Source of the DNA: a virus
Virus record (IMG/VR): IMGVR_UViG_3300045988_159412
Direction: 5' to 3' (one strand)
DNA length: 57,634 bases
Below the pieces are notes generated by a model that searched no databases, was not told where the DNA came from, and saw nothing but the letters and a program-made list of their open reading frames with translations. Shown in pieces: positions 8,097 to 33,418 of the stretch. Made by a program: the position numbers and the translations under genes. Position 1 is the first letter of the stretch, and the number at the start of each line of letters is the position of its first letter.

Positions 8097-8103
8097 ACAA
8101 ATC

Positions 8104-11100
8104 ATGGAAGAGCTTTCAGAACAACCCGAAGATTCTATCCTGTTGGATGAAATAAAGAAAATGAATTCGGGCCTCGCTTCTAATAAGGAGCAACCTGAAA
8201 TAACAGAAGAGGATTTAGAAGCAAATCCTCAAGCTTACTCTTCTGAACAAATTGAAGGGGTTTTAAGAAACAAGAGAAGTATTCGCACAAAGCTTGACGA
8301 TTATTTAAGGATGTCGTCTAGCTTGCTTCCTACTACTCCACGAGAAGCCTTAGATGCCGTAGGGACATTGCGTGAGGAACTGCAAGCAAATGGTATAGAC
8401 CCGGAGTATGAGAGGTATCGTGAGAAGATAAAAAGAAACGAAGATATAGTTTATTCGGTTACTAGGTATATCAATCCAACAACAGGCTTGTTTGGGGATG
8501 TTCCTGCACAAGATGTAACAAACAATAAGCTGGAAAAAATACTTAGTGCTGAGCAAATTAGGGATTTCAATAATGCCCCGCAGTTTATGCGAGACAAATA
8601 TGTTTTCAATCGCATTGTTGAAAACTTTTTCCCGGAAGGGGAGATGGATAAAGGGTATGCACTAGAACTCCTGAAAAAGCATTATCAAACCGACTCAATG
8701 CACGGAGTTGTCAGCAAATACGCTCAAGAGCTTCAAAGGAACAAGGATGAGGAGACAGCATACAATGAAGCCTCTACCAGATTTTTCGATTCCTTTATAG
8801 AAACAGGAGGCGATTACCAGAAAGCAATCGACAGCTTGGAAGGCAATCTAAACCTGTATGCGGAAAACATTTTCAACCAAGAACCTGCGCTTAAATACAT
8901 TTACCAGCGTGCGTATAACTCCGTCTCATGGATTAAAGATGAATACATAGAAAGCGGAGAGCTGGATTGGGACAAGATGGCAGACAGGTTGTTGAAGCTT
9001 GGGGAAGGAGAGACGTTCTCTCTAGCCATTCAGATGCTTCCCTACATGTTGCCCAAAGACGACAGGACTTGGCTAACCCAAGCCATAGACGACACCGCCT
9101 CTGATGTCTCCCGCTTTGCTAGGCTCATGGTTGACGGAGGAGGTGATAGCGCCCAAGCAGAACGCCTTGCGTTGGCTATCCAGCAGGAATATCGTCAGGG
9201 CCGAGACATGCCTACTTCGTGGCTAGGAATAGCGGCTAAGGTAGCAACAGACCAAGTTCCCAAGATAACGGCAGTAACAGGAAGTACTCTTTTAGCTAGT
9301 GGTGGAGGCCCTGTATCTATGGCCGCCACAGGTATGGCTGTCGGCTCAATGGTGTATGGTTCAACGGTAGGTCTTGAGGCATATAGGACGAATTCTTCTA
9401 GGGCAGGAGCATTGACATATGGTGTTACTGTTGGGGCCTTGGAAGGTCTCCTTGAAAACGTAACTCTTGGCGTTGGTGCTTTGGCCTCCAAAGGTATTAA
9501 GGTGGCAGAGGCAGGTAGGAAAATGGCCTCTGTTGCCGGAAGAGTTCCCGCTACCGTAAGAGGTGCGGCGGCTGGTGCTTTGTCTGAATATACCCAAGAA
9601 GTCATTGCTGACCCAATTTATGTTGGATTGGAGAATGTAATGCGCTCTGCGGGGTTTGAGCTTACCCAGCAAAACACCCTTAAAAACTGGTGGGAAACAT
9701 TGGACTTCACATCCCCTGAACTATTGGGGGCTACAGCCATTCTTGGCGGCTCCATTGGTGCTGTTGGGGGCTATCAAGCTAACCACCTCATCAACCGAGT
9801 AGGAAGAAGCGCTTCGGCTCTTCAAGCTTATGGTGTACCCGAATCGGAAGCTGTGGCTATTGCCGAAATGCCAGACGGCAAGGAGCGCACAAACAGGCTT
9901 ATATCGGCCCTTCGCAATAACCGGGTAAGCCCCGACGTGCAAATAACAAACCAGCAAGCGGGGATATTCCTGAACTTTTTAGCTAAGAATGCAGAGAGGT
10001 TTAAGGATGTTGAGCTGATGCCGGAGATATCCGACAACGGGGACGGAACCTTTAATATTGTTGAGAGAGACCCGGTAAGTGGAGCTGAAAAAGTAACCAC
10101 AGTAACAGACGAAATCGCAGGGACGTTCATGTCTCAAGCGTTGCAGTCAAATCCGGGATTTATCAGGGCATTAAATATTTTCGCCCAAGAAGAGATAGAG
10201 TCAGGGGTGGGCAAGGAGACGAAGATAAAGAGCTATACTCCTGACGAACTCCGAGCAAAAATCCAATCCACAGAAGACAACAATGCAACTATAGCACGAC
10301 TTAGGGCTTTGGCTGTAATTAACCAAGACCCGGAATTGTTGCAGAGTTTTCGTGATGGGAAAGTAAGTATTGAAGATGTAGCAAATGAGCTGGAAATTGT
10401 ATCTGCATATAGAGATGGCACGATTGCTGTTGCGAGGGGTGAAGCGAATCCTCTCAATATTCTGGAAGAAATAATTCACGCCCGTGCAATATCCGATTTG
10501 GAGAGCGGCGTTATTTCTCGAAGCGTCATTGAAACACAGGTAAGGAATTACTTGGAGTTCTTGGGACGTAGTGCGGAAGAGATAGGGGATTTGAGCAATG
10601 ACGTTGTGTTGCAGGAACATTTGGCGAATATGGGGAAGGCTTTGGCAACAACGCCGGAACTGTTTTCCGCAATGCCCGGCAATGTTCAAACAATCCTTGA
10701 GTGGCAGAAGGACGCTATAGCGGAAGTTGGGAATGTCTTTGCGGAAGGCGCTCTGATAAAAGAGGCCATTGAGCAGGGCATTGTCTCTCCCGATTTTGTC
10801 AAGTGGTCTAAATCTTTGGCGACTATGGCCGAACGTCGTGACGGTCAGGATATGGCAGAGCTTGTCAATGGTGCGACCGGAGAAAGCATTTTGCCAATGG
10901 GCCAGAGCCTTCCTTCCGTGAGGAGGCGTGGAACCATTGATGTAACTCCTTCTGTAAGAACCATTAATGAAGCCATATCAAACATAGTCAATGGCGCATC
11001 GGAAAGGTCTATAGGCCAGCTCCACAAATTGCAGAGGAGCATGATAAAGCTTTCGGAAAGGTTTTCTCAAGGGAAGCTGACCGAACGAGGACAACAGAAA

Positions 11101-14100
11101 GCGTTACTGAATTCTGTTCTCTCTATCGCTAATGCAATGGCTTCCGGTAGCCGGAAGTTTATCTCCAACCAGCTTGCCGAAAGGCTTGCGAATCCCAAGA
11201 GCAACGAAGCGTTTAATGCGGACATGAAGACTGCATTGGATGCCACAGTAGCGGCCTTGAACGAAAGAGCGGAGGCGGCGAGCCGGAAGCAGTTGGAGCG
11301 CATTATTCAGGACGAGATAAACAGGAGGGTTGAGCAAGCGGACGCTAAAGCCAAGAAGGATTTCAACAGGGAAATGAAATTCCTCCGGGGTTTAATCTCC
11401 AAGGAAATAAGGAAAGACATCAAGGAGGAAAGAGCGGAGGCGGCGGCAGAGAAGAAGCTTGCCAGTAAAAGCATACAGAGCTTGCGAAGGCTTGCCGAGA
11501 ATGCTTTTAAGGACACCAAGGGGCGCTCTCGTTCTTTGGACGCACAAGCCAGAGAGGAGACTATGGATGCCCTTGAGGTTATGGCTATGTCTCCTTCCGA
11601 AGTTGCAACCCAGCTTGAAGTCTTGGATAGCACCATAGATGAGCTTCAAAACCAGCCTGCCACAGAAGAACTTGCTCTGGAACTGGAAAATCTGGAAAAC
11701 CAAAAGAATCTCCTTGAGGTGTTTGGTAGTGCGTTGTATCGGGAGAAGATGCCTAACGGAAGGTATAAGTATGCTCTCAATGCACAGCAACTTGCGGAAG
11801 CAGTTAAGACATTGAAGGAGCTACAGCGTGAAGGGCGACTCCGCAGGAAAAAGGTTAATGAACGTATTGAGCGCTTCTATAATGATTTTAACGCTAAAAT
11901 CAATGAGCGAGTAGGAGGAGAGAAGAATCGTGATGCCCTTAGAAAAGCCGTAATGGAAAGGGACCAACGGGGAACGGGCTTTTTAGATAGAATCTTCACG
12001 CAATTCATGAGCCTTCAACAACTCCTCGAAGTGATGTCTTCCATGAAATCCTTTAAGGACATAGGGACATTCTTGCAGAACAACGTCCAATTCGCAGAGC
12101 AACAGCGAGGGGTAGAAAAAGAAAAGGCTACGTCCAATGCGATTCGCATCATGCGTGGAATGATGGAGATTGCAGGGCAGAACTCTCCAAGGTATTTTGA
12201 TGAGCTTTCTACAAAAACTATTCCCTTTATGGGGCATGAGCTAACCAAGTATGGCCTTGTAAAAGTCTATCAGACATTGAGAGAGAAGGATGGCTTGGCT
12301 GTATTGAGAGAAAACCTTGGAGACAAGGGGATGGATTTCGGCAACTATCGTAAGTACCAACAGGAGTTGGAGGGCTTAAACAAGAGCCTTGATGATGGCG
12401 CCATTACTTCCGAAGAGTTTGAGTCCAATCTGGAAGTCATTGAAGAAGAATACCTTGCGAGGAAGGAAAAAGATATTGCCAAGCTATTGGAATTGCTTGG
12501 GCCGGATGGGCTTTACCTTGCTGACGAGTTACAGAACCTGTATCGGGAAAAGGGCGAGAAGCTACGGGCGTTCATGGCAGAGAACTATGGCCAGACGGTT
12601 ATCCTTGATGACTACTATACGCCCCGCAATATTGCCGCCTATAATACAATGCAAGAAGGGGATATGGATGCTTACAGTAAGGGACACGTCACAAGGACGG
12701 GCTTGCCCTCTTACGCAAAGCACCGGAACACTCCCTCTTCGGCGGCGCTCTCTCTGGAAATAAACCCTCTTGGGGAATATCTTCGTTATAGCTCTATCAT
12801 GGAGGGGTGGATGACAGCTTCGGAACTGGTCAACTTCAACAACCGGGTATGGGCTAATCCCACAACGAATGCACAGTTGCAGAAATTATTAGGCCCAGCC
12901 AATTTCGAGGCGGCAAACAAAGCCCTGTATTACTTCATCAACGAGGGGCGTGTGTATGCCCAAAAGAGCATGTTGGCAGAGGTAATGGGGAAAGTGTTCC
13001 AAGTATTGGCTAAGACAAGGATTGCTTTCTCCTTGGCTTCTCTGGTGCGCTCTGGGGCGGCTTTGTTCAACCCTATCGTTGGTAGCAACTTCTCCATGAT
13101 GGAAATTATCAAAGGCGTGGCAGAGGTGACAAGCGGGAACTATAAAGGTTTTACCCTTGAAGAGCTTCGTGACTTGGAGGCAATGAAGGAACGTAAGTAC
13201 CGTGGATGGGAAGACCGTGTGCTTGCCGATAAGGCATTAAGCATTCCCCTAAAAAAACAAGCGCAATGGGGATATTGGCAGGAAGCGGGCATGAGCGGCC
13301 TTATGGCTTTTGACTGGTGGAGCATATCTTTTGTGAATCAGCTGACCTCCCACATGCTTGCTAATCGCGGTTTGTCGCATGAACAGATAAGATGGGAGCT
13401 TAACAAAAACATCTACCAGACGGCACAGCCTTTATCTACCTCCGCTAAGGCTATCCACTTGATAGGTGGAAGCTCATTTGAGCAAGCCCAGTTCCTTTTC
13501 TTGTCCGACGTGATGAACAAGTTCGGCCTAGTGATGATGCAAGGCAAAAAGGATGTTCCTTTCTGGGAGGCTTTTCAGGGAGCCTTTCGTGTTTATACTA
13601 TTGCCGCTCTTGCTAATGGTCTCTTCAACGGCTTGGCTACAGGTTTGTTTGGCGATAAAGACAAAGAGGACGACTTCATGAGCAACTTCTTATTGACTTC
13701 GGTATTGAGTCCGATTGTTTCTGTCCCTATGTTCGGCGGGTTTGCAGAGTGGTGCGCTTCCCTTATTAGCGGTGGTAAGCAATTCAGTCTGGGACGAGCC
13801 GATATGGCTGATTTATCCAAATCAATTCAAGGCTTAGTCAGAAGTATTGTGAAGACGTATGAGACTGTATCGGAAAAATGGGACAAGGAAGGTGCTTTGA
13901 CTACCAATGATTACATTGATATGGTTTCCTATGTAGGCAAAAATATTGGGAGTGTCGCATCGGCTACCACAATATTTGGTACTTCTGGGCAGAGTATGAC
14001 CAAAGCTCTAGAGATGGTAGGTGCATTATCAAATGCCCTTTCACAAGCTAAGACGACCACACAGAAATTCCTTCCAGAGTCAGTAAATCCCCTCTATACC

Positions 14101-14256
14101 GAAAAAGAAGCTATGAAGGAGAGGGCTAGGCAGATAAGAAGGGAGAAGAAGAAGGCCAAGCAGGAAAACGGCGAAAGGTCAGCAACCTACAGAAAACTTT
14201 CACGGGAATTAAGGCAAATAAACAAACAGTTGAAGATAAGGGGCTGGGAAGACTAG
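8104..14256 (+). CDS. tape-measure-like protein, ~2050 aa
   Basis: Gly/Ala-rich hydrophobic stretches in the N- and C-terminal thirds (e.g. VTGSTLLASGGGPVSMAATGMAVGSMVYG; LANGLFNGLATGLFG). Central charged coiled-coil (AEAASRKQLERIIQDEINRRVEQADAKAKKD...). This is the classic tape-measure architecture. First in-frame ATG (MEELSEQ) is at 8104; the track start at 8038 overlaps the upstream gene. Confidence 0.65.
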   Translation: MEELSEQPEDSILLDEIKKMNSGLASNKEQPEITEEDLEANPQAYSSEQIEGVLRNKRSIRTKLDDYLRMSSSLLPTTPREALDAVGTLREELQANGIDPEYERYREKIKRNEDIVYSVTRYINPTTGLFGDVPAQDVTNNKLEKILSAEQIRDFNNAPQFMRDKYVFNRIVENFFPEGEMDKGYALELLKKHYQTDSMHGVVSKYAQELQRNKDEETAYNEASTRFFDSFIETGGDYQKAIDSLEGNLNLYAENIFNQEPALKYIYQRAYNSVSWIKDEYIESGELDWDKMADRLLKLGEGETFSLAIQMLPYMLPKDDRTWLTQAIDDTASDVSRFARLMVDGGGDSAQAERLALAIQQEYRQGRDMPTSWLGIAAKVATDQVPKITAVTGSTLLASGGGPVSMAATGMAVGSMVYGSTVGLEAYRTNSSRAGALTYGVTVGALEGLLENVTLGVGALASKGIKVAEAGRKMASVAGRVPATVRGAAAGALSEYTQEVIADPIYVGLENVMRSAGFELTQQNTLKNWWETLDFTSPELLGATAILGGSIGAVGGYQANHLINRVGRSASALQAYGVPESEAVAIAEMPDGKERTNRLISALRNNRVSPDVQITNQQAGIFLNFLAKNAERFKDVELMPEISDNGDGTFNIVERDPVSGAEKVTTVTDEIAGTFMSQALQSNPGFIRALNIFAQEEIESGVGKETKIKSYTPDELRAKIQSTEDNNATIARLRALAVINQDPELLQSFRDGKVSIEDVANELEIVSAYRDGTIAVARGEANPLNILEEIIHARAISDLESGVISRSVIETQVRNYLEFLGRSAEEIGDLSNDVVLQEHLANMGKALATTPELFSAMPGNVQTILEWQKDAIAEVGNVFAEGALIKEAIEQGIVSPDFVKWSKSLATMAERRDGQDMAELVNGATGESILPMGQSLPSVRRRGTIDVTPSVRTINEAISNIVNGASERSIGQLHKLQRSMIKLSERFSQGKLTERGQQKALLNSVLSIANAMASGSRKFISNQLAERLANPKSNEAFNADMKTALDATVAALNERAEAASRKQLERIIQDEINRRVEQADAKAKKDFNREMKFLRGLISKEIRKDIKEERAEAAAEKKLASKSIQSLRRLAENAFKDTKGRSRSLDAQAREETMDALEVMAMSPSEVATQLEVLDSTIDELQNQPATEELALELENLENQKNLLEVFGSALYREKMPNGRYKYALNAQQLAEAVKTLKELQREGRLRRKKVNERIERFYNDFNAKINERVGGEKNRDALRKAVMERDQRGTGFLDRIFTQFMSLQQLLEVMSSMKSFKDIGTFLQNNVQFAEQQRGVEKEKATSNAIRIMRGMMEIAGQNSPRYFDELSTKTIPFMGHELTKYGLVKVYQTLREKDGLAVLRENLGDKGMDFGNYRKYQQELEGLNKSLDDGAITSEEFESNLEVIEEEYLARKEKDIAKLLELLGPDGLYLADELQNLYREKGEKLRAFMAENYGQTVILDDYYTPRNIAAYNTMQEGDMDAYSKGHVTRTGLPSYAKHRNTPSSAALSLEINPLGEYLRYSSIMEGWMTASELVNFNNRVWANPTTNAQLQKLLGPANFEAANKALYYFINEGRVYAQKSMLAEVMGKVFQVLAKTRIAFSLASLVRSGAALFNPIVGSNFSMMEIIKGVAEVTSGNYKGFTLEELRDLEAMKERKYRGWEDRVLADKALSIPLKKQAQWGYWQEAGMSGLMAFDWWSISFVNQLTSHMLANRGLSHEQIRWELNKNIYQTAQPLSTSAKAIHLIGGSSFEQAQFLFLSDVMNKFGLVMMQGKKDVPFWEAFQGAFRVYTIAALANGLFNGLATGLFGDKDKEDDFMSNFLLTSVLSPIVSVPMFGGFAEWCASLISGGKQFSLGRADMADLSKSIQGLVRSIVKTYETVSEKWDKEGALTTNDYIDMVSYVGKNIGSVASATTIFGTSGQSMTKALEMVGALSNALSQAKTTTQKFLPESVNPLYTEKEAMKERARQIRREKKKAKQENGERSATYRKLSRELRQINKQLKIRGWED

Positions 14257-24119: not shown

Positions 24120-24149
24120 CGTCCCCTTAACTACCAGAAAACAAAAGTG

Positions 24150-24191
24150 TAATAAAAAACCCCTGTAGCCTAAATAAAGACTACAGGGGTT
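24150..24191 (-). terminator. rho-independent terminator of the AT-rich - strand operon
   Basis: Stem aacccctgtag/ctacaggggtt at 24158-24168 and 24181-24191. On the - strand it is followed by ttttttatta. Lies between convergent genes. Confidence 0.55.
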
Positions 24192-24216: not shown

Positions 24217-24903
24217 CTATTGAACTCTTTTTTCGGGTATTAGTTTGCTATTAAATGAGTAGTATTTTTTTGAGTAATTGTAGGTCTTGGAATATTTAGA
24301 ATATCCGGTTTTGTTGTTCCAATAAACTTCATCCCCATAAAAAGAGCAGTAACTATATTCTTTCTTTTTATAAGAGGAATTTGAGAAATAAGCGAATTTG
24401 TTTTTGTCTGGTCTTTCAAAATTACCGTAAAACAACATCTTTCCGTTTTTCCAAAAAACAAATTTGCTTTGGCCAATGATAGAGTTAACCATATCATCAA
24501 TGCCCTCATTTGTTTCCTTGATACCTGTTTCGCCAAAGGCTGGCAAAAACAGGTATCGGAAGAAGGTTTCACTATCGGTTAAATCTCCTTTATTTTTTAT
24601 GGAAAGAACGCCGTTGTGGCAAAAATACCAGCCGCTACCGCTCCAACCGTGAACGTTTTTTTCAGAAATAGAGCCATGAGTTTTGATTCTAGCGTGAAGA
24701 AGGACTACGTAATCATTAGGAATTTTTTCCCATGTGGCCACAACTTCCTTTTTTAGAAGAGTTCTAATTAGAAATTCCGGGTTATCGTCTTTGCTTCCTC
24801 TCTTAAAACCTAGCAGGAAAAATCCGTCTGGATTATTTGTTAGGCAATTTTGAAAACGTTGAGTGCCGATATCTTTCTTGAATCCGTAAGCAATGATACA
24901 CAT
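24217..24903 (-). CDS. class-II glutamine amidotransferase (Ntn-hydrolase) domain protein, 228 aa
   Basis: Met-Cys start (MCIIAY) supplies the N-terminal nucleophile. NPDG, LLHARIKTHGSISEKNVHGW (compare H-x-R-x-A-T-x-G...N-x-HP) and FCHNGVLSIKN (compare HNGxIxN) match the GAT-II core. C-terminal Y/K/S-rich tail. Confidence 0.75.
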   Translation of the reverse strand: MCIIAYGFKKDIGTQRFQNCLTNNPDGFFLLGFKRGSKDDNPEFLIRTLLKKEVVATWEKIPNDYVVLLHARIKTHGSISEKNVHGWSGSGWYFCHNGVLSIKNKGDLTDSETFFRYLFLPAFGETGIKETNEGIDDMVNSIIGQSKFVFWKNGKMLFYGNFERPDKNKFAYFSNSSYKKKEYSYCSFYGDEVYWNNKTGYSKYSKTYNYSKKYYSFNSKLIPEKRVQ

Positions 24904-24916
24904 GTTTTTTGTTTTG

Positions 24917-25324
24917 TTATTGTTTTTTTTCTGCGTTTTTTGTGATGATATTTTTGATACCTTCCATTAGGGAAAAAGCTTTATTTTCTTCTTCCGGCGT
25001 CTCGTAAAAGATTTTTACGAAAGTATATTGCTGATATGTAGGGTATGTCATTTTAACTCCGTTTCTAAGCAAATAATTGATAGTTTCCAGCCTTATTTTT
25101 TGAAATAGATCTTGAGATAAAGGCCTATGGAAAACATTTGAGAATTCTAAGTTAAGGCTACCTATCAAGCTCGAAATATAGCATTCTAGGTTTGTTTGTC
25201 GTCGCAAAAAAGAGGATTGCTCTTTCTTCTGCTCTTTCTTCTGCTCTTTCATTTGCTCTTTCTTCTGCTCTTTCATTTGCTCTTTCTTCTGCTCTTTCAT
25301 TTGCTCTTTCTTCTGCTCTTTCAA
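24917..25324 (-). CDS. KEQK/KEQM tandem-repeat protein, 135 aa
   Basis: N-terminus is MKEQKKEQMKEQKKEQM..., encoded by a 12-bp by 9 tandem repeat. The remainder is non-repetitive. Confidence 0.55.
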   Translation of the reverse strand: MKEQKKEQMKEQKKEQMKEQKKEQMKEQKKEQKKEQSSFLRRQTNLECYISSLIGSLNLEFSNVFHRPLSQDLFQKIRLETINYLLRNGVKMTYPTYQQYTFVKIFYETPEEENKAFSLMEGIKNIITKNAEKKQ

Positions 25325-25326
25325 AA
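25219..25326. repeat. 12-bp tandem repeat (tgctctttcttc / tgctctttcatt), about 9 copies, coding
   Basis: Read directly from the sequence. Confidence 0.9.
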
Positions 25327-25405
25327 GCCTAATGCGAACATCAGGCTAAAGTATATCAATAGTCCAAAAATGATTATAATTGTTTCGATAATTGTTTTTT
25401 GTATT

Positions 25406-26725
25406 TTATTTTTTATATTCTTCATATTTTTTTATAAGTTTTTTTAGACGTTCGGTTTTAGCGTTCTCCATTAAGTAATTCTGCAAAAACAATCTAATAC
25501 TTAACAAATCGCTTTTATATAGATCTTGCGCTTCAATGGAATATTTGTAAATATGATAACAAAAATCTAAAATGGATTTTATCATAATCGTATCAACAGT
25601 CCCTTTGCCGCGTCGAAATTCTATTGTTTGACTATTGGTGAAATTTAATTCTAGGTATCTGGAGTCGCAATAAGGCTGAAATATTTTTTCCAGTCCTAAT
25701 TCTGATGCCGCGCTTGGATGTATTCCAAATTCCATTAGCTTTTGAATTTGCGGTTCAGCTCTACAATATCCTGTATTATTCCTTCCAAAAAGTTCTGTAA
25801 TAAATGCATAAGGGAAACAGTAAAAAGCCTTTTTCAGCATAATACAAACCTTTGTGCAGAAATTGACTTTTGATAAATGTATGTGGAATCCTGTATCTGA
25901 TGTTTTTTGCGAAAAACAAAAAAATTTAGGCATGAATTCTTTTGTTAATATATCAATACCTCCTTCATCTTTGATTAGATCATCAAAAGACATGGGAAGT
26001 GTTGTTATTTCTACGCCTCCTTCTTCGGGGGAAATACTACTATCTCTTTGCAAGTAGAAGAAATTTGAGGTATTATCAAAAATACATCTTTTTTTTGAAT
26101 AAACTTCTAGTTCTAAGCCTAGAAGCGGCTCTTTTAATTTTCTGTTGTCAGGCTTACACCATACATCAGGGAAATAGTGATAACTTCTTAGTCTGGTATC
26201 AACAAATAATTTTGGACAATTAGGGTGCTCATAAGTTGTTTTATTATCCCCTAGATGCGGAATTATGTATTCTGTTAGATATTCGACGTTGCTTTCATTT
26301 AGATTTCCCCATAAAACATTTTCAACAAAAAATCTTAGGATTTTCACATATTCCGGGGAATATTTTTTATATAAAATTTTATCAGGCGTTAGATTTATTC
26401 TATTTGTCAATCTTTTATTTAGTTTAATCATATCGGAATTTTTTATTAGTCTGATTTTGTTTTTGCCATAAACACGACCGCGGAAGTCTCTTTCTCCGAT
26501 ATATTTCAAAAATGCCGTAATTTTTCTTCTGGATTTTGACAAGAAAGACACATCAAGATTTTTGTATGTATTGTCAAGATATTCTTCTTTAAGAATTTCT
26601 TTGTAGTTTTTTCTCACAAAATTGAATAAGATCTCTAAAGCTTTTGTTTCTTTTGCGTTCATTTTTTTTAAAAAATAATACGGTTGTTGTTGTTTTTGTT
26701 GTTGATTTCTGAATAAGCTTCCCAC
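25406..26725 (-). CDS. hypothetical protein, 439 aa; possible glutamine-synthetase-like amidoligase (weak)
   Basis: Conserved-looking LGLELEVYS (E-x-E strand), GFHIHLSKV (H-x-H) and EFRRGKG (Arg) resemble the metal and ATP ligand pattern of GS/GCS2-type amidoligases. Shares an operon with a GAT-II domain protein, a described association. The low-complexity N-terminus suggests the true start may be MNAKETK. Confidence 0.45.
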   Translation of the reverse strand: MGSLFRNQQQKQQQPYYFLKKMNAKETKALEILFNFVRKNYKEILKEEYLDNTYKNLDVSFLSKSRRKITAFLKYIGERDFRGRVYGKNKIRLIKNSDMIKLNKRLTNRINLTPDKILYKKYSPEYVKILRFFVENVLWGNLNESNVEYLTEYIIPHLGDNKTTYEHPNCPKLFVDTRLRSYHYFPDVWCKPDNRKLKEPLLGLELEVYSKKRCIFDNTSNFFYLQRDSSISPEEGGVEITTLPMSFDDLIKDEGGIDILTKEFMPKFFCFSQKTSDTGFHIHLSKVNFCTKVCIMLKKAFYCFPYAFITELFGRNNTGYCRAEPQIQKLMEFGIHPSAASELGLEKIFQPYCDSRYLELNFTNSQTIEFRRGKGTVDTIMIKSILDFCYHIYKYSIEAQDLYKSDLLSIRLFLQNYLMENAKTERLKKLIKKYEEYKK

Positions 26726-27243
26726 AATTCTTCCACATGTTGCCTTGTGTCATGCAGTTTTAAGAAAAGCTCTTGTGATAAATTTACGAGTATTCCTTTT
26801 TTGTTAAGCTTTATTGCACAATGTTTATAATACTTTAGTGCTAATGCTTTATTTGATGTGAAGCAACGTGTGTGCGGATATATAGATTTTAGATTAGATT
26901 CTCCGTATTCCGGAAAATGACCTAAAACTTGCTTAGTCTTATATTCGTACCAGTTTACAGGCTTCACCCCGACAAATAAGAATCCTACATTGGCTCCGCC
27001 GCCAGTTTTACGCATGATAGGTAGATAACCGATTGTGTTTCCTTTTATTGTGTATGGTGTTATATATTTTTTTATAATTTCGCCTGTTCTAGTATTTTCT
27101 AGTTCTAGAAAATATTTAATACTGATTGATTTTTTTAAAAATTCAATCATCTTTTCGTTGTTTTCACTTTCTAACATTGTAGATACTAAAGGTGTTTTGT
27201 TTCTACAAGTTAGATACATTTTAATTATATACATTGTATTCAT
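26668..27243 (-). CDS. hypothetical protein, 191 aa
   Basis: AT-rich ORF in the axis-proximal operon. No motif. Confidence 0.5.
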   Translation of the reverse strand: MNTMYIIKMYLTCRNKTPLVSTMLESENNEKMIEFLKKSISIKYFLELENTRTGEIIKKYITPYTIKGNTIGYLPIMRKTGGGANVGFLFVGVKPVNWYEYKTKQVLGHFPEYGESNLKSIYPHTRCFTSNKALALKYYKHCAIKLNKKGILVNLSQELFLKLHDTRQHVEELWEAYSEINNKNNNNRIIF

Positions 27244-27677
27244 TTTTTTTGTTTTTCTTTTTCTTCTCCTGTTTCGAGAAAAATCTTTAAATCAAGCTCA
27301 ATGTTGTTTTTAAGTAAACTAAATTTTAGGTTTTCATCAACAAGGGTATAAGCTAATAAAAGAGCATCTTTTTTATTAAAAACTTCTTTCTTAAATTCTG
27401 GAATGGTGTAAATTGTGAGTTCGTTTTTTATTAGTTTTGCTAATGAGCCGTAAATTAGCAATCCTTTAAAACTCAATCCTTCAAACTCGTCACTGAGAGT
27501 AAAGCGATTCCCGTGCCTAACAAAAATCAAAGAATCTTGTTTTTTAGCTTTTAGTCGCAGTGCGGTTTCGATGAATCCGAAATTTCTTCTTTCCTTTTTA
27601 GGGACTAGGTATAAAAAGTTTCCCCCTTTTATTACCTTTGCGACCTTAGATAAAAGGTGATCAATATCTTTTTTCAT
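27240..27677 (-). CDS. hypothetical protein, 145 aa
   Basis: AT-rich ORF. Its stop overlaps the downstream start (ATGA). Confidence 0.5.
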   Translation of the reverse strand: MKKDIDHLLSKVAKVIKGGNFLYLVPKKERRNFGFIETALRLKAKKQDSLIFVRHGNRFTLSDEFEGLSFKGLLIYGSLAKLIKNELTIYTIPEFKKEVFNKKDALLLAYTLVDENLKFSLLKNNIELDLKIFLETGEEKEKQKK

Positions 27678-27960
27678 TTAATTCTAACGTTTTAAAGTTA
27701 AACCTATATTCTCGATTTTCCTTTAGCGGGCATTTCCGGAAATCGCTAATCAAATCGCCTTCCGGACGGCTCTCTATTCTGAAAATCAATCTCCTAGGGT
27801 GTTTGTTTGCGATAAAAACTTCTATGATTGAGCCTATTCTCCAATCATCTTTTATCGCCGAAAAAAAACACCTAAGACCGTGATTGAAATTTAGATAGGA
27901 GACAGGGAACATCCGCCTTTCTTCTTGTGGGTTTTCAAACTCAAATTGATAAACTTTCAT
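27661..27960 (-). CDS. hypothetical protein, 99 aa
   Basis: AT-rich ORF in the operon. Confidence 0.45.
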   Translation of the reverse strand: MKVYQFEFENPQEERRMFPVSYLNFNHGLRCFFSAIKDDWRIGSIIEVFIANKHPRRLIFRIESRPEGDLISDFRKCPLKENREYRFNFKTLELNEKRY

Positions 27961-27963
27961 TTC

Positions 27964-28293
27964 TTAAAATGATGAATAATTGATAAGCGCTTCTTGAGGT
28001 AAAATGACTTTGGATTGAAAGCATATTCCAATAATAGGCAACATTGTTTTTTCTTCTTTATCAACTCTAATAAGTTTTTTGTTCATGCGACAAATATATG
28101 AAAACTCTTCAAATCCAGCATCGATCAACATGCATTTAAGTATTTCTCTTTCAAAAAAGCCACACATTGGCTTTTTTAGCTCATAAATAATTTCATATTT
28201 CCTTGTTTCTCCTAGTTTTCTTTTTATATTTATTTTTGTTTTTTGCTTCAAAAAACAACTTAAACACCCATATGTATCTTTGATTATTTTCAT
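27964..28293 (-). CDS. hypothetical protein, 109 aa
   Basis: AT-rich ORF in the operon. Confidence 0.45.
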   Translation of the reverse strand: MKIIKDTYGCLSCFLKQKTKINIKRKLGETRKYEIIYELKKPMCGFFEREILKCMLIDAGFEEFSYICRMNKKLIRVDKEEKTMLPIIGICFQSKVILPQEALINYSSF

Positions 28294-28589
28294 TTTATGA
28301 ATATTAGTTTTTCAGTTTTTTTGTAACAAGGAAAACGTCTTATCATTTCTGCTAAAGAGTTTCTATATGAAAAAATAAAGCTTACTGGCTTTCTTTCTCT
28401 TTTTAATCTTTCAATATTAGAGTATTCCTTGAATACGAATATATTAAAAATTTCTTTTCTTATCATCTCTTTTTCAGTTTTTTTAAAAATTCCCACAAAA
28501 AAAGTTTTTTTGTTTTTCAGGGTAACAATGAGAAAAAAATCATTATTGTTGATAATATCGTAACACTCTACTAAATATTTGGTTTTCAT
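28290..28589 (-). CDS. hypothetical protein, 99 aa (probably the first real gene of the axis-proximal operon)
   Basis: ATG start MKTKYLVECYDIINN. Overlaps the downstream gene by ATGA. Confidence 0.45.
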   Translation of the reverse strand: MKTKYLVECYDIINNNDFFLIVTLKNKKTFFVGIFKKTEKEMIRKEIFNIFVFKEYSNIERLKRERKPVSFIFSYRNSLAEMIRRFPCYKKTEKLIFIK

Positions 28590-28758
28590 GTTTTTTTATT
28601 TTTAAGTGAGACTTAACGACATAACTAGCCGCACACAATGCCCTTCCCTGCAGGGCAATCCAACTCATGCCTCTATACGGAGGCAATTCTCCATATTTTT
28701 TCTTTTTGAATTTTGAGGGGGTGCAAAGTCTTTTCGCTATTTCGTAATTACTAATCAA
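28543..28758 (-). CDS. doubtful 71-aa ORF next to the palindrome axis
   Basis: The track's Met is a TTG codon. The first in-frame ATG would leave only 41 aa. Overlaps the 99-aa gene. Confidence 0.2.
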   Translation of the reverse strand: MISNYEIAKRLCTPSKFKKKKYGELPPYRGMSWIALQGRALCAASYVVKSHLKIKKHENQIFSRVLRYYQQ

Positions 28759-28876
28759 GGAGCACCCGCCTTCCGAATATTTACACCAGTCACACGCTCC
28801 GTTTAGTAACTCATTTGCAAATGAGTTACTAAACGGAGCGTGTGACTGGTGTAAATATTCGGAAGGCGGGTGCTCC

Positions 28877-29092
28877 TTGATTAGTAATTACGAAATAGCG
28901 AAAAGACTTTGCACCCCCTCAAAATTCAAAAAGAAAAAATATGGAGAATTGCCTCCGTATAGAGGCATGAGTTGGATTGCCCTGCAGGGAAGGGCATTGT
29001 GTGCGGCTAGTTATGTCGTTAAGTCTCACTTAAAAATAAAAAAACATGAAAACCAAATATTTAGTAGAGTGTTACGATATTATCAACAATAA
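28877..29092 (+). CDS. doubtful 71-aa ORF (mirror of 28543..28758)
   Basis: Exact reverse-complement copy. Same caveats. Confidence 0.2.
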   Translation: MISNYEIAKRLCTPSKFKKKKYGELPPYRGMSWIALQGRALCAASYVVKSHLKIKKHENQIFSRVLRYYQQ

Positions 29093-29345
29093 TGATTTTT
29101 TTCTCATTGTTACCCTGAAAAACAAAAAAACTTTTTTTGTGGGAATTTTTAAAAAAACTGAAAAAGAGATGATAAGAAAAGAAATTTTTAATATATTCGT
29201 ATTCAAGGAATACTCTAATATTGAAAGATTAAAAAGAGAAAGAAAGCCAGTAAGCTTTATTTTTTCATATAGAAACTCTTTAGCAGAAATGATAAGACGT
29301 TTTCCTTGTTACAAAAAAACTGAAAAACTAATATTCATAAAATGA
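29046..29345 (+). CDS. hypothetical protein, 99 aa (mirror of 28290..28589)
   Basis: Exact reverse-complement copy. Confidence 0.45.
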   Translation: MKTKYLVECYDIINNNDFFLIVTLKNKKTFFVGIFKKTEKEMIRKEIFNIFVFKEYSNIERLKRERKPVSFIFSYRNSLAEMIRRFPCYKKTEKLIFIK

Positions 29346-29671
29346 AAATAATCAAAGATACATATGGGTGTTTAAGTTGTTTTTTGAAGCAAAAAACAAA
29401 AATAAATATAAAAAGAAAACTAGGAGAAACAAGGAAATATGAAATTATTTATGAGCTAAAAAAGCCAATGTGTGGCTTTTTTGAAAGAGAAATACTTAAA
29501 TGCATGTTGATCGATGCTGGATTTGAAGAGTTTTCATATATTTGTCGCATGAACAAAAAACTTATTAGAGTTGATAAAGAAGAAAAAACAATGTTGCCTA
29601 TTATTGGAATATGCTTTCAATCCAAAGTCATTTTACCTCAAGAAGCGCTTATCAATTATTCATCATTTTAA
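29342..29671 (+). CDS. hypothetical protein, 109 aa (mirror of 27964..28293)
   Basis: Exact reverse-complement copy. Confidence 0.45.
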   Translation: MKIIKDTYGCLSCFLKQKTKINIKRKLGETRKYEIIYELKKPMCGFFEREILKCMLIDAGFEEFSYICRMNKKLIRVDKEEKTMLPIIGICFQSKVILPQEALINYSSF

Positions 29672-29674
29672 GAA

Positions 29675-29974
29675 ATGAAAGTTTATCAATTTGAGTTTGA
29701 AAACCCACAAGAAGAAAGGCGGATGTTCCCTGTCTCCTATCTAAATTTCAATCACGGTCTTAGGTGTTTTTTTTCGGCGATAAAAGATGATTGGAGAATA
29801 GGCTCAATCATAGAAGTTTTTATCGCAAACAAACACCCTAGGAGATTGATTTTCAGAATAGAGAGCCGTCCGGAAGGCGATTTGATTAGCGATTTCCGGA
29901 AATGCCCGCTAAAGGAAAATCGAGAATATAGGTTTAACTTTAAAACGTTAGAATTAAATGAAAAAAGATATTGA
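29675..29974 (+). CDS. hypothetical protein, 99 aa (mirror of 27661..27960)
   Basis: Exact reverse-complement copy. Confidence 0.45.
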   Translation: MKVYQFEFENPQEERRMFPVSYLNFNHGLRCFFSAIKDDWRIGSIIEVFIANKHPRRLIFRIESRPEGDLISDFRKCPLKENREYRFNFKTLELNEKRY

Positions 29975-30395
29975 TCACCTTTTATCTAAGGTCGCAAAGG
30001 TAATAAAAGGGGGAAACTTTTTATACCTAGTCCCTAAAAAGGAAAGAAGAAATTTCGGATTCATCGAAACCGCACTGCGACTAAAAGCTAAAAAACAAGA
30101 TTCTTTGATTTTTGTTAGGCACGGGAATCGCTTTACTCTCAGTGACGAGTTTGAAGGATTGAGTTTTAAAGGATTGCTAATTTACGGCTCATTAGCAAAA
30201 CTAATAAAAAACGAACTCACAATTTACACCATTCCAGAATTTAAGAAAGAAGTTTTTAATAAAAAAGATGCTCTTTTATTAGCTTATACCCTTGTTGATG
30301 AAAACCTAAAATTTAGTTTACTTAAAAACAACATTGAGCTTGATTTAAAGATTTTTCTCGAAACAGGAGAAGAAAAAGAAAAACAAAAAAAATGA
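29958..30395 (+). CDS. hypothetical protein, 145 aa (mirror of 27240..27677)
   Basis: Exact reverse-complement copy. Confidence 0.5.
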   Translation: MKKDIDHLLSKVAKVIKGGNFLYLVPKKERRNFGFIETALRLKAKKQDSLIFVRHGNRFTLSDEFEGLSFKGLLIYGSLAKLIKNELTIYTIPEFKKEVFNKKDALLLAYTLVDENLKFSLLKNNIELDLKIFLETGEEKEKQKK

Positions 30396-30967
30396 ATACA
30401 ATGTATATAATTAAAATGTATCTAACTTGTAGAAACAAAACACCTTTAGTATCTACAATGTTAGAAAGTGAAAACAACGAAAAGATGATTGAATTTTTAA
30501 AAAAATCAATCAGTATTAAATATTTTCTAGAACTAGAAAATACTAGAACAGGCGAAATTATAAAAAAATATATAACACCATACACAATAAAAGGAAACAC
30601 AATCGGTTATCTACCTATCATGCGTAAAACTGGCGGCGGAGCCAATGTAGGATTCTTATTTGTCGGGGTGAAGCCTGTAAACTGGTACGAATATAAGACT
30701 AAGCAAGTTTTAGGTCATTTTCCGGAATACGGAGAATCTAATCTAAAATCTATATATCCGCACACACGTTGCTTCACATCAAATAAAGCATTAGCACTAA
30801 AGTATTATAAACATTGTGCAATAAAGCTTAACAAAAAAGGAATACTCGTAAATTTATCACAAGAGCTTTTCTTAAAACTGCATGACACAAGGCAACATGT
30901 GGAAGAATTGTGGGAAGCTTATTCAGAAATCAACAACAAAAACAACAACAACCGTATTATTTTTTAA
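30392..30967 (+). CDS. hypothetical protein, 191 aa (mirror of 26668..27243)
   Basis: Exact reverse-complement copy. Confidence 0.5.
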   Translation: MNTMYIIKMYLTCRNKTPLVSTMLESENNEKMIEFLKKSISIKYFLELENTRTGEIIKKYITPYTIKGNTIGYLPIMRKTGGGANVGFLFVGVKPVNWYEYKTKQVLGHFPEYGESNLKSIYPHTRCFTSNKALALKYYKHCAIKLNKKGILVNLSQELFLKLHDTRQHVEELWEAYSEINNKNNNNRIIF

Positions 30968-32229
30968 AAAAAATGAACGCAAAAGAAACAAAAGCTTTAG
31001 AGATCTTATTCAATTTTGTGAGAAAAAACTACAAAGAAATTCTTAAAGAAGAATATCTTGACAATACATACAAAAATCTTGATGTGTCTTTCTTGTCAAA
31101 ATCCAGAAGAAAAATTACGGCATTTTTGAAATATATCGGAGAAAGAGACTTCCGCGGTCGTGTTTATGGCAAAAACAAAATCAGACTAATAAAAAATTCC
31201 GATATGATTAAACTAAATAAAAGATTGACAAATAGAATAAATCTAACGCCTGATAAAATTTTATATAAAAAATATTCCCCGGAATATGTGAAAATCCTAA
31301 GATTTTTTGTTGAAAATGTTTTATGGGGAAATCTAAATGAAAGCAACGTCGAATATCTAACAGAATACATAATTCCGCATCTAGGGGATAATAAAACAAC
31401 TTATGAGCACCCTAATTGTCCAAAATTATTTGTTGATACCAGACTAAGAAGTTATCACTATTTCCCTGATGTATGGTGTAAGCCTGACAACAGAAAATTA
31501 AAAGAGCCGCTTCTAGGCTTAGAACTAGAAGTTTATTCAAAAAAAAGATGTATTTTTGATAATACCTCAAATTTCTTCTACTTGCAAAGAGATAGTAGTA
31601 TTTCCCCCGAAGAAGGAGGCGTAGAAATAACAACACTTCCCATGTCTTTTGATGATCTAATCAAAGATGAAGGAGGTATTGATATATTAACAAAAGAATT
31701 CATGCCTAAATTTTTTTGTTTTTCGCAAAAAACATCAGATACAGGATTCCACATACATTTATCAAAAGTCAATTTCTGCACAAAGGTTTGTATTATGCTG
31801 AAAAAGGCTTTTTACTGTTTCCCTTATGCATTTATTACAGAACTTTTTGGAAGGAATAATACAGGATATTGTAGAGCTGAACCGCAAATTCAAAAGCTAA
31901 TGGAATTTGGAATACATCCAAGCGCGGCATCAGAATTAGGACTGGAAAAAATATTTCAGCCTTATTGCGACTCCAGATACCTAGAATTAAATTTCACCAA
32001 TAGTCAAACAATAGAATTTCGACGCGGCAAAGGGACTGTTGATACGATTATGATAAAATCCATTTTAGATTTTTGTTATCATATTTACAAATATTCCATT
32101 GAAGCGCAAGATCTATATAAAAGCGATTTGTTAAGTATTAGATTGTTTTTGCAGAATTACTTAATGGAGAACGCTAAAACCGAACGTCTAAAAAAACTTA
32201 TAAAAAAATATGAAGAATATAAAAAATAA
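30910..32229 (+). CDS. hypothetical protein, 439 aa; possible GS-like amidoligase (mirror of 25406..26725)
   Basis: Exact reverse-complement copy. Same weak motif evidence. Confidence 0.45.
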   Translation: MGSLFRNQQQKQQQPYYFLKKMNAKETKALEILFNFVRKNYKEILKEEYLDNTYKNLDVSFLSKSRRKITAFLKYIGERDFRGRVYGKNKIRLIKNSDMIKLNKRLTNRINLTPDKILYKKYSPEYVKILRFFVENVLWGNLNESNVEYLTEYIIPHLGDNKTTYEHPNCPKLFVDTRLRSYHYFPDVWCKPDNRKLKEPLLGLELEVYSKKRCIFDNTSNFFYLQRDSSISPEEGGVEITTLPMSFDDLIKDEGGIDILTKEFMPKFFCFSQKTSDTGFHIHLSKVNFCTKVCIMLKKAFYCFPYAFITELFGRNNTGYCRAEPQIQKLMEFGIHPSAASELGLEKIFQPYCDSRYLELNFTNSQTIEFRRGKGTVDTIMIKSILDFCYHIYKYSIEAQDLYKSDLLSIRLFLQNYLMENAKTERLKKLIKKYEEYKK

Positions 32230-32308
32230 AATACAAAAAACAATTATCGAAACAATTATAATCATTTTTGGACTATTGATATACTTTAGCCTGATGTTCG
32301 CATTAGGC

Positions 32309-32416
32309 TTTTGAAAGAGCAGAAGAAAGAGCAAATGAAAGAGCAGAAGAAAGAGCAAATGAAAGAGCAGAAGAAAGAGCAAATGAAAGAGCAGAAGAAA
32401 GAGCAGAAGAAAGAGC
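32309..32416. repeat. 12-bp by 9 coding tandem repeat (mirror of 25219..25326)
   Basis: gaaagagcagaa / gaaagagcaaat units read directly. Confidence 0.9.
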
Positions 32417-32718
32417 AATCCTCTTTTTTGCGACGACAAACAAACCTAGAATGCTATATTTCGAGCTTGATAGGTAGCCTTAACTTAGAATTCTCAAATG
32501 TTTTCCATAGGCCTTTATCTCAAGATCTATTTCAAAAAATAAGGCTGGAAACTATCAATTATTTGCTTAGAAACGGAGTTAAAATGACATACCCTACATA
32601 TCAGCAATATACTTTCGTAAAAATCTTTTACGAGACGCCGGAAGAAGAAAATAAAGCTTTTTCCCTAATGGAAGGTATCAAAAATATCATCACAAAAAAC
32701 GCAGAAAAAAAACAATAA
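32311..32718 (+). CDS. KEQK/KEQM tandem-repeat protein, 135 aa (mirror of 24917..25324)
   Basis: Exact reverse-complement copy. Confidence 0.55.
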   Translation: MKEQKKEQMKEQKKEQMKEQKKEQMKEQKKEQKKEQSSFLRRQTNLECYISSLIGSLNLEFSNVFHRPLSQDLFQKIRLETINYLLRNGVKMTYPTYQQYTFVKIFYETPEEENKAFSLMEGIKNIITKNAEKKQ

Positions 32719-32731
32719 CAAAACAAAAAAC

Positions 32732-33418
32732 ATGTGTATCATTGCTTACGGATTCAAGAAAGATATCGGCACTCAACGTTTTCAAAATTGCCTAACAAAT
32801 AATCCAGACGGATTTTTCCTGCTAGGTTTTAAGAGAGGAAGCAAAGACGATAACCCGGAATTTCTAATTAGAACTCTTCTAAAAAAGGAAGTTGTGGCCA
32901 CATGGGAAAAAATTCCTAATGATTACGTAGTCCTTCTTCACGCTAGAATCAAAACTCATGGCTCTATTTCTGAAAAAAACGTTCACGGTTGGAGCGGTAG
33001 CGGCTGGTATTTTTGCCACAACGGCGTTCTTTCCATAAAAAATAAAGGAGATTTAACCGATAGTGAAACCTTCTTCCGATACCTGTTTTTGCCAGCCTTT
33101 GGCGAAACAGGTATCAAGGAAACAAATGAGGGCATTGATGATATGGTTAACTCTATCATTGGCCAAAGCAAATTTGTTTTTTGGAAAAACGGAAAGATGT
33201 TGTTTTACGGTAATTTTGAAAGACCAGACAAAAACAAATTCGCTTATTTCTCAAATTCCTCTTATAAAAAGAAAGAATATAGTTACTGCTCTTTTTATGG
33301 GGATGAAGTTTATTGGAACAACAAAACCGGATATTCTAAATATTCCAAGACCTACAATTACTCAAAAAAATACTACTCATTTAATAGCAAACTAATACCC
33401 GAAAAAAGAGTTCAATAG
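32732..33418 (+). CDS. class-II glutamine amidotransferase (Ntn) domain protein, 228 aa (mirror of 24217..24903)
   Basis: Exact reverse-complement copy with the same MC..., NPDG, HARIKTHG...NVHGW and HNGVLSIKN motifs. Confidence 0.75.
   Translation: MCIIAYGFKKDIGTQRFQNCLTNNPDGFFLLGFKRGSKDDNPEFLIRTLLKKEVVATWEKIPNDYVVLLHARIKTHGSISEKNVHGWSGSGWYFCHNGVLSIKNKGDLTDSETFFRYLFLPAFGETGIKETNEGIDDMVNSIIGQSKFVFWKNGKMLFYGNFERPDKNKFAYFSNSSYKKKEYSYCSFYGDEVYWNNKTGYSKYSKTYNYSKKYYSFNSKLIPEKRVQ

Follow-up and report, generated by a model that had tools for sequence, protein, structure and literature searches.

The AT-rich block at positions 24217-28758 of the viral record IMGVR_UViG_3300045988_159412 (IMG/VR; the whole stretch of 57,634 nucleotides is hereafter referred to as the window) appears to be the body of a conserved, rightward operon built around two enzymes, an amidoligase and a glutamine amidotransferase (GATase). 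Glutamine-dependent amidation by this enzymatic core is, on balance, the probable explanation and the one that best fits the system as a whole. The block is a three-gene variant of a known, functionally uncharacterised phage cassette, in which the genes for the two enzymes are separated by a gene for a small repeat protein. It belongs to a ~40-kb, human-gut-associated, podovirus-like phage without a close cultured relative. A preliminary description of this DNA, made from its letters, had portrayed the block as an accessory or early-expressed module with a history distinct from that of the phage core, and as a natural place for anti-defence, host-takeover or superinfection-exclusion genes.

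As judged from its sequence, the GATase is a class II, N-terminal-nucleophile (Ntn) enzyme with a predicted amidotransferase activity. The N-terminus reads MCIIA, with the cysteine directly following the initiator methionine; this residue (C2) is present in 29 of 30 homologues, and R72, N97-G98 and D110 are invariant across 30 homologues. In the profile alignment, R72 is paired with R73 and N97-G98 with N98-G99 of GlmS; D110 presumably corresponds to D123 of GlmS. The profile matches are to PDB 3mdn (E = 7e-7) and to the glutaminase domain of GlmS (PDB 1xff; E = 4e-4), and many of the homologues carry the PF13230 (GATase_4) domain. Among 50,697 phage records, the protein matches only OM43 phages and one gut contig, at ~31% identity.

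The amidoligase shows direct matches to the Pfam family Amidoligase_2 (E = 0.003) and to PHROG 2443, annotated as 'amidoligase' (E = 1.9e-5). An exhaustive HMMER search with this protein retrieved 280 relatives. PF12224 (Amidoligase_2) is matched by 33 of 40 aligned sequences (the query and 39 homologues), and the hhalign probabilities of similarity to GATase-adjacent amidoligases reach 99.9% for L027, an unrelated 85-kb contig, and 99.0% for phage MEP402 (here and below, L numbers denote the contigs used for comparison). Family membership is therefore strong by transitivity, despite the sub-threshold direct match. Ten residues, E184, E186, D207, S209, E218, H260, H262, R294, E348 and R350, are invariant in the 40 aligned sequences; this pattern of acidic residues, histidines and arginines agrees with what is generally expected of the metal- and ATP-binding site of the glutamine-synthetase fold. 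The AlphaFold2 (AF2) model has a mean predicted local distance difference test score (pLDDT) of 81, with values above 90 over residues 140-418, and Foldseek aligns it with YbdK/GCS2, glutamine synthetase, gamma-glutamylmethylamide synthetase (GmaS), PafA/Dop and GCL at a probability of 0.9-1.0. According to this model, the catalytic domain has the glutamine synthetase/GCS2 carboxylate-amine ligase fold. The first ~150 residues of the protein occur in this phage lineage only, and a tblastn search with the whole protein gave no match in the 50,697 phage records.

The genes for these two enzymes form a pair that has been annotated in phages since 2009 and is nearly always linked in viral metagenomes. 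In 73 of the 80 IMG/VR loci at which a relative of the amidoligase is encoded, a GATase homologue lies directly downstream, on the matching strand; of the other seven loci, five are cut off by the end of the contig. The two genes abut in nearly all of the 73 paired loci; here they are split by one 127-aa gene. Among the 80 loci, such a split is confined to this lineage and to L052, where the inserted gene is unrelated. The two genes also lie side by side as gp06-gp07 of MEP402, a cultured OM43 phage, and on three large, unrelated contigs. No third universal partner of the cassette was found across the 80 loci. The GC content of the cassette in other phages equals that of its flanks (median difference, +0.005). 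In L027, the pair is located a few genes downstream of two open reading frames (ORFs; 421-678 and 3781-4020) with weak or faint matches to Lar restriction-alleviation proteins, a slight hint of anti-restriction company.

According to the citation in PMC10580990, the pair was described by comparative genomics by Iyer, Abhiman, Burroughs and Aravind in 2009. It has been annotated in phiEco32, LUZ24-like Pseudomonas phages, the OM43 phages MEP401 and MEP402 and mycobacteriophage Marvin (PMC10580990, PMC3890496, PMC8989533); in the LUZ24-like phages, it lies in the early-gene strand (PMC3890496). The function of the pair is still called unknown (PMC10580990; PMC8989533), and a literature search for a tested function found none. 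The suggested roles include cell-wall modification or superinfection exclusion, secondary metabolism and, by co-association, thymidine hypermodification (PMC10580990, PMC3890496, PMC8989533). In LUZ24-like phages, the pair is extended by a further COOH-NH2 ligase, by an ATP-grasp enzyme and by a gamma-glutamyl-cyclotransferase-like protein (PMC3890496). None of these extended partners (COOH-NH2_lig PF14395, ATP-grasp, GGCT/AIG2), which are not universal to the pair, was detected in the block at E <= 1.

The compositional contrast that first drew attention to this region is real, and the early estimate of roughly 30 versus 45 percent GC was accurate: the computed GC content is 0.315 in 24217-28758 and 0.447 in 1-24216, and all 4.5-kb windows outside the block are at 0.413 or above (outside mean, 0.450; standard deviation, 0.022). 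Codon usage differs as well, with AAA accounting for 103 versus 35 per 1000 codons and TTT, AAT and TAT among the top codons of the block. The shift affects all three codon positions (GC1/GC2/GC3 of 0.36/0.28/0.30 in the block and 0.49/0.39/0.49 elsewhere) and the amino acid composition (combined Phe, Tyr, Met, Ile, Asn and Lys, FYMINK, 42.7% versus 29.4%; Lys alone, 12.5% versus 6.6%).

Comparison with the relatives does not bear out the accessory nature of the block. Conservation of the block in every relative had been named beforehand as the observation that would speak against an accessory module, and the block is indeed syntenic and AT-rich in L021/L022, L024, L025 and L031-L035. In L021 and L022, with amidoligases ~77% identical to that of the window, eight genes occur in matching order at a GC content of 0.26-0.37. 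L024 (amidoligase identity 46%) keeps the cassette along with the small ORFs orf191 and orf99b, in a block of 27-34% GC versus 36-51% in the backbone, and L025 (38%) keeps orf99b, orf191 and the amidoligase gene, where the contig ends, at 27-38% versus 44-53% GC. The order amidoligase-small ORF-GATase is kept even in L110 (amidoligase identity 31%, GATase identity 51%), with a GC drop of only ~0.05. Patchy presence of the block was not seen among the relatives found, all of which have it in synteny. Nor do the relatives carry different cargo at this position, a possibility raised in the preliminary description: the block genes are conserved, and a variable slot lies upstream of orf99a. The low GC shared by the relatives, together with the equal GC of cassette and flanks elsewhere, indicates that AT-richness belongs to the module of this lineage, where it has been maintained for a long time and carries no signature of recent import.

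The proposal of a history distinct from that of the core, on the other hand, is supported by elevated synonymous divergence (dS) and by reassortment of alleles in the block. Relative to L021, dS is 0.13-0.67 in the block versus 0.00-0.07 in six flanking recombination genes, with an intermediate value of 0.26 in the adjacent DnaC-like gene; the block values amount to 2- to 14-fold that of the fastest-diverging gene of the backbone. The ratio of nonsynonymous to synonymous divergence (dN/dS) is 0.12-0.21 for both enzymes, the C-terminal domain of the repeat protein, orf99b and orf191, and 0.50, 0.72 and 1.08 for orf109, orf145 and orf99a, respectively; by this measure, the genes at 0.12-0.21 are functional and under purifying selection. 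In L034 (IMGVR_UViG_3300045988_158356), the backbone is 99.5% and the GATase 98% identical to the window, versus 77% for the amidoligase, and the identity switches from 98% to 78% at ~25240-25300, inside the 12-nt repeat, which marks a recombination breakpoint. The same contig lacks orf191 (window positions 26679-27184), with orf145 abutting the amidoligase gene, so that orf191 is dispensable despite its dN/dS of 0.13 elsewhere. The module is vertically retained in content, yet it is a recombination-prone, highly divergent 'allelic' region. The lineage thus offers a compact, conserved three-gene cassette under purifying selection within a region of rapid divergence and allele exchange, a pattern expected of genes that meet the host directly.

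The structure of the window itself requires a correction. Without a single mismatch, the 57,634 bases are identical to their reverse complement. The information they hold thus amounts to 28,817 bases, and the 'mirror' block at 28877-33418 is the same DNA read backwards and no second copy. More than 20 independent human-metagenome contigs, many of them 39.6-41 kb long, were retrieved by the exact sequence of two block proteins. When the half-window is compared with one of these, L002 (ERZ919677, 39,734 bp), the identity is 100% from the 'axis' onward and the L002 sequence differs upstream, where it contains the N-terminal half of a 139-aa ORF, then ~850 bases of non-coding DNA and, encoded on the opposite strand, genes for lysis (Amidase_3), terminase, portal and capsid proteins. 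Because the window is a perfect palindrome and the real contigs diverge from it at a natural 22-nt palindrome, the contig is read as an assembler foldback; a palindrome of this length could cause such a fold in a de Bruijn assembler whose first k is 21. The 'axis' is accordingly an assembly artefact and not a feature of the genome, the ~40-kb contigs running straight through the 22-nt palindrome. A biological hairpin or telomere was considered and rejected, given that more than 20 independent contigs continue through the site and that the foldback sits on the palindrome; an assembly chimera behind the GC jump was rejected as well, given that identical junctions recur in many samples and with several assemblers. 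The real genome is ~40 kb long and extends past the 'axis', and features of the window described as 'mirrored' or 'axis-adjacent' are to be re-read as single copies in this genome. As a consequence of the foldback, ORF 9 is truncated and the promoter region of the operon falls outside the window.

The nine ORFs of the block are all located on a single strand, as initially described (Table 1). Neighbouring ORFs share an ATGA at 28290-28293 and at 27240-27243, overlap by 17 and 47 nt in two other places and are otherwise spaced 3-13 nt apart; the sole larger gap, of ~100 nt, precedes the repeat-protein gene. The clean terminator reported at the end of the block was recovered as a strong stem with a T-tract, and the DnaC-like gene converges on it from the opposite strand. 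For the ORFs of 439 and 135 aa, ATG codons are the likelier starts, with products of 418 and 127 aa; these are the starts called in independent contigs. All block proteins are basic (pI 9.1-10.1), and no transmembrane-like segments were found in a crude hydrophobicity scan (no 19-residue window having more than 14 that are hydrophobic or small), with no dedicated transmembrane predictor run. In the complete genome, the operon begins at a long, divergent, non-coding control region, passes through a variable cargo slot and stops at the DnaC-side terminator. A near-consensus sigma-70-type match, TTGACA-16-TATTAT (a consensus match only), is present in L002, 150 bases upstream of the 139-aa first gene, and the operon is probably transcribed early. 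Of the characterisation as 'accessory or early-expressed', the second part is likely, inasmuch as the early-side position, the control region and the promoter-like match fit early expression or a role in host interaction, and the first does not hold, the block being kept in all relatives found. The divergent control region of L002 (7000-9627) contains long polypyrimidine/polypurine tracts and GGAGG-like repeats, with a GC skew of -0.65 to -0.82 over L002 7001-8500; the skewed tract is followed by a GC-rich stretch without credible ORFs, and a called 127-aa 'gene' looks spurious. An Rfam scan of the control region and the block gave nothing credible, and a tRNA scan found none.

Table 1. Features of the AT-rich block and its boundaries (window coordinates)
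Feature	Coordinates	Strand	Remarks
Intrinsic terminator closing the operon	24148..24191	-	14-bp stem 24158-24191, then TTTTTT; -24.5 kcal/mol
Class II (Ntn) glutamine amidotransferase, YafJ/EgtC-like, 228 aa (predicted)	24217..24903	-	Tyr/Lys-rich C-terminal tail
K/E/Q-repeat protein, 127 aa from ATG	24917..25300	-	N-terminal repeat tract and conserved ~90-aa C-terminal domain
Tandem repeat, 12-nt units (also scored with a 24-nt period)	25218..25323	-	Encodes (M/K)KE(Q/P) tetrapeptides
9-bp hairpin with UUCG loop	25326..25347	-	Directly upstream of repeat-protein gene; -11.4 kcal/mol
Amidoligase, 418 aa from ATG (alternative GTG start 26725)	25406..26662	-	Catalytic domain ~150-418
orf191	26668..27243	-	Lineage-restricted, immediately upstream of amidoligase gene; dN/dS 0.13
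orf145, small basic protein	27240..27677	-	dN/dS 0.72 vs L021; no family matches
orf99b	27661..27960	-	Best-conserved small ORF of the block; dN/dS 0.13
orf109, small basic protein	27964..28293	-	Six cysteines; no family matches
orf99a, small basic protein	28290..28589	-	Fastest-evolving block gene; no family matches
ORF 9 (71 aa, TTG start)	28543..28758	-	C-terminal half of 139-aa first gene, cut by foldback
Natural perfect palindrome, 22 nt, TAACTCATTTGCAAATGAGTTA	28807..28828	.	Foldback point ('axis', 28817/28818) of palindromic contig

Scans against Pfam, PHROGs, NCBIfam and PADLOC gave nothing significant for the six ORFs described as lacking recognisable motifs. The strain-variable DNA of the operon lies just beyond the artefactual axis, and the foldback cuts it short in the window. 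The full 139-aa ORF (L002 9628-10047) has the 22-nt palindrome inside it and yielded nothing significant in scans of those four databases. The 5' end of the operon, from the control region to orf99a, holds ORF sets that differ among otherwise near-identical strains (139 aa; 114+89+125 aa; 189+129 aa; 191 aa; 118+120+89+209 aa, as seen in L002, L004, L005, L008, L009 and L021), and a Pfam scan of ten of the proteins encoded in the slot gave no match. The GC content of the slot is backbone-like, 0.42-0.44, as measured in L021 alone. This 5' end is the real strain-variable cargo site. The adjacent orf99a, with 57.6% amino acid identity to its L021 counterpart, overlaps the first gene by 47 nt (28543-28589), which is unusually long for a tightly coupled operon, and its true start may differ. 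A weak match to orf109, at 30% identity, was detected in L025, and a tblastn search (E <= 0.001) found no match to orf145 in L024 or L025. The identity of orf99b is 92% to L021, 55% to L024 and 72% to L025, and a profile search of PDB with this protein returned nothing. Homologues of orf191 form only 21 clusters, 19 of which cover most of the length at >=47% identity and two of which are partial; its AF2 model has a pLDDT of 55 and finds no fold match with Foldseek, and the PDB profile search was negative.

These results lend no support to the specific anti-defence functions considered for the block. No match to anti-CRISPR or anti-restriction proteins was found as far as PHROGs and Pfam cover them, a dedicated anti-defence library not having been part of the comparison. 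Ocr- or ArdA-like DNA mimics would be strongly acidic; the block proteins are basic, which excludes Ocr-like mimics, and have no PHROG or Pfam match to such proteins. Superinfection exclusion likewise found no family match, and the lack of transmembrane-like segments in the crude scan argues against typical membrane exclusion proteins.

The protein encoded between the two enzymes is variable in its N-terminal part and constrained in its C-terminal part. Tandem Repeats Finder identified 8.8 copies of the repeat in the window, and the tracts vary across strains from ~5 to ~14 units (manual count; L001, L003, L021, L033 and L035 compared). Every Met-containing unit brings an in-frame ATG preceded by AAAGAG. 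The protein is found in this lineage only, with 43% identity in L024 and a dN/dS of 0.13 for the C-terminal domain; at the matching position between the enzymes, L110 encodes a 94-aa ORF. The hairpin upstream, located in the ~100-nt intergenic stretch, is kept in L021 and L033 and partly in L024; attenuation, processing or stabilisation are candidate roles for it. The repeat protein may be an adaptor or a substrate of the enzyme pair.

The lineage is present on more than 1000 human-metagenome contigs. Beyond the block, the unit encodes T7-like tail tubular proteins, internal virion proteins and a tail fibre, as well as a PD-(D/E)XK/DUF2800 exonuclease, a PHROG-3657 protein, a RuvC-like resolvase and a DnaC-like loader. 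The closest cultured phages show only ~30% terminase identity, a megablast search with 25 kb of the unit against the 50,697 phage records gave no match, and a search with the portal protein against genome contigs, aimed at the host, found no relative. Two proteins of the virion module, of 2072 aa (8038-14256, plus strand) and 650 aa (6144-8096, plus strand), have no Pfam or PHROG match; their genes come after that of the internal virion protein, in the place expected for proteins like T7 gp15/gp16. Shine-Dalgarno-like motifs precede none of eight block genes and two of 17 backbone genes (start contexts of 25 genes), the leaders being A-rich. The host assignment Veillonella, based solely on the bin label 'Veillonella sp.' of a metagenome-assembled genome for the 40.7-kb relative JAHAAI010000009.1, was not adopted; the near absence of Shine-Dalgarno motifs sits uneasily with this label.

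Under the favoured explanation, the ligase, with its predicted glutamine synthetase/GCS2 fold, would use ATP to activate a carboxylate as an acyl-phosphate, the amidotransferase would release ammonia from glutamine, and the ligase would form the amide with this ammonia. Such a two-subunit, glutamine-dependent amidation would be analogous in logic to MurT/GatD or asparagine synthetase. Candidate targets are a carboxylate of the cell envelope or peptidoglycan, or a protein or peptide, and the surrounding small basic ORFs would be fast-evolving, lineage-specific early proteins. The early timing, the formation of a complex, the amidation chemistry and the target are what we infer. Several observations weigh against this scheme. 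Taken alone, both enzymes score below the Pfam gathering threshold (17.5 versus 23 bits for the GATase and 17.9 versus 22 bits for the amidoligase), and the Foldseek TM-scores of the amidoligase are low (0.25-0.36) even at a probability of 1.0. In L034, the amidoligase allele is swapped against an unchanged GATase allele, which argues against tight co-adaptation. A standalone class II GATase can also be a gamma-glutamyl-amide hydrolase, EgtC being an example. The scheme supposes a complex of the two proteins and ammonia, rather than another amine, as the nucleophile, and the early timing is proposed from position and one promoter-like match.

Among the alternatives, a gamma-glutamyl or peptide ligation-removal cycle, in which the amidoligase would couple glutamate or a peptide to an amine or protein and the Ntn enzyme would act as a hydrolase to remove or process it, as in EgtA/EgtC, PuuA/PuuD or PafA/Dop, is possible, albeit rather unlikely. 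The amidoligase fold matches YbdK/GCS2, gamma-glutamylmethylamide synthetase and the Pup ligase and depupylase PafA/Dop, the residues for binding the alpha-amino and alpha-carboxyl groups of a glutamyl moiety are retained in the GATase, and the extended gene set of LUZ24-like phages points to gamma-glutamyl peptide chemistry (PMC3890496). However, the block contains no ATP-grasp enzyme, GGCT or second ligase, and the fixed order of the two genes, which abut elsewhere, fits a synthase-glutaminase pair equally well, the present computations not discriminating between the two chemistries. A further reading is a protein-modification scheme, in which the amidoligase and the Ntn amidotransferase would act on the repeat protein as substrate or carrier. 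The ligase would amidate, deamidate, glutamylate or cross-link Glu, Gln or Lys side chains of this protein, the product would be a tag or polymer acting on a host target, and the number of repeats would tune the process. There are precedents, in the action of PafA/Dop on Pup and in the Glu-Lys cross-linking of actin by the ACD toxin; the scheme is nonetheless highly improbable. A role in DNA base hypermodification, shielding the phage DNA from restriction, would be in line with the position of the block next to replication and recombination genes and with contigs from viral metagenomes, some of which carry amidoligase and amidotransferase genes alongside those for thymidine hypermodification (PMC8989533). 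It is extremely unlikely, considering that Pfam and PHROG scans of the ~40-kb genome, supplemented with precomputed Pfam marks on all called genes, detected no dUMP hydroxymethylase/thymidylate-synthase-like protein, 5-hmdU DNA kinase, aGPT-Pplase, radical-SAM protein, pyridoxal phosphate (PLP) enzyme or DNA polymerase, and that most cassette contigs have no shared third partner.

Two further explanations concern the origin of the composition rather than the chemistry. The 13-point GC contrast at all codon positions, and block genes that diverge faster than the backbone and reassort their alleles, would be compatible with a recent accessory island or 'moron' from a low-GC donor, with anti-defence or superinfection-exclusion cargo that differs between relatives; the scatter of the cassette over many unrelated phage lineages also implies that it moves on long time scales. 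A recent island is very unlikely all the same, since the genes, their order and the low GC occur in every relative examined, including those with backbone proteins only 71-82% identical; since L110, with backbone proteins at 27-55% identity, still has the gene order and the slight GC drop described above; and since block divergence tracks backbone divergence. Furthermore, no integrase, transposase or flanking repeats were found, and the variable cargo is located upstream of the block at normal GC (L021). The low GC could instead be a by-product, without a function of its own, of weak constraint and AT-biased mutation in fast-evolving early genes, given that the substitution load of the block is above that of the backbone, that dN/dS reaches 0.5-1.1 in three small ORFs and that the shift spans all codon positions and the amino acid make-up. 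This, too, is unlikely: the constrained enzymes, orf99b and orf191 (dN/dS 0.12-0.21) are equally AT-rich (GC3 of 0.26-0.37), and the block stays at a GC of 0.30-0.35 while the backbone is at 0.40-0.50 among relatives, which looks like maintenance and not drift. A strong GC contrast, then, need not mean recent acquisition.

Compared with characterised proteins, the GATase resembles standalone class II GATase proteins (PDB 3mdn) and the GlmS domain in the HxR..HG and HNG motifs and in the N-terminal cysteine; unlike GlmS, it has no fused synthase domain, its partner is encoded separately and the Tyr/Lys-rich tail at its C-terminus varies. In structure, the amidoligase comes closest to YbdK/GCS2 ligases and glutamine synthetase (PDB 1r8g, 1tt4 and 8fbp; E = 3e-5 to 1e-3), from which it differs at the sequence level, with an identity of 10-13% and no match in a PDB sequence search, even by profile. 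In the amidation of peptidoglycan by MurT/GatD (PMC3267633), a separate glutaminase subunit feeds ammonia to an ATP-dependent ligase, as would be the case under the logic proposed here; the analogy is one of mechanism only, as MurT (Mur-ligase-like) and GatD (a class I GATase) belong to other protein families than the enzymes of the block.

The closest parallel is the phage amidoligase-GATase pair itself, with which the block shares both families, the amidoligase-first order on one strand and the catalytic residues, as well as a location among small early-side ORFs next to replication genes. The block departs from the known pair by the absence of LUZ24-type extra genes, by the lineage-specific N-terminus of the amidoligase and by the conserved small gene between the enzymes. 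Finally, in contrast to the cassette elsewhere, the module in this lineage lies 9-12 GC points below its flanks.

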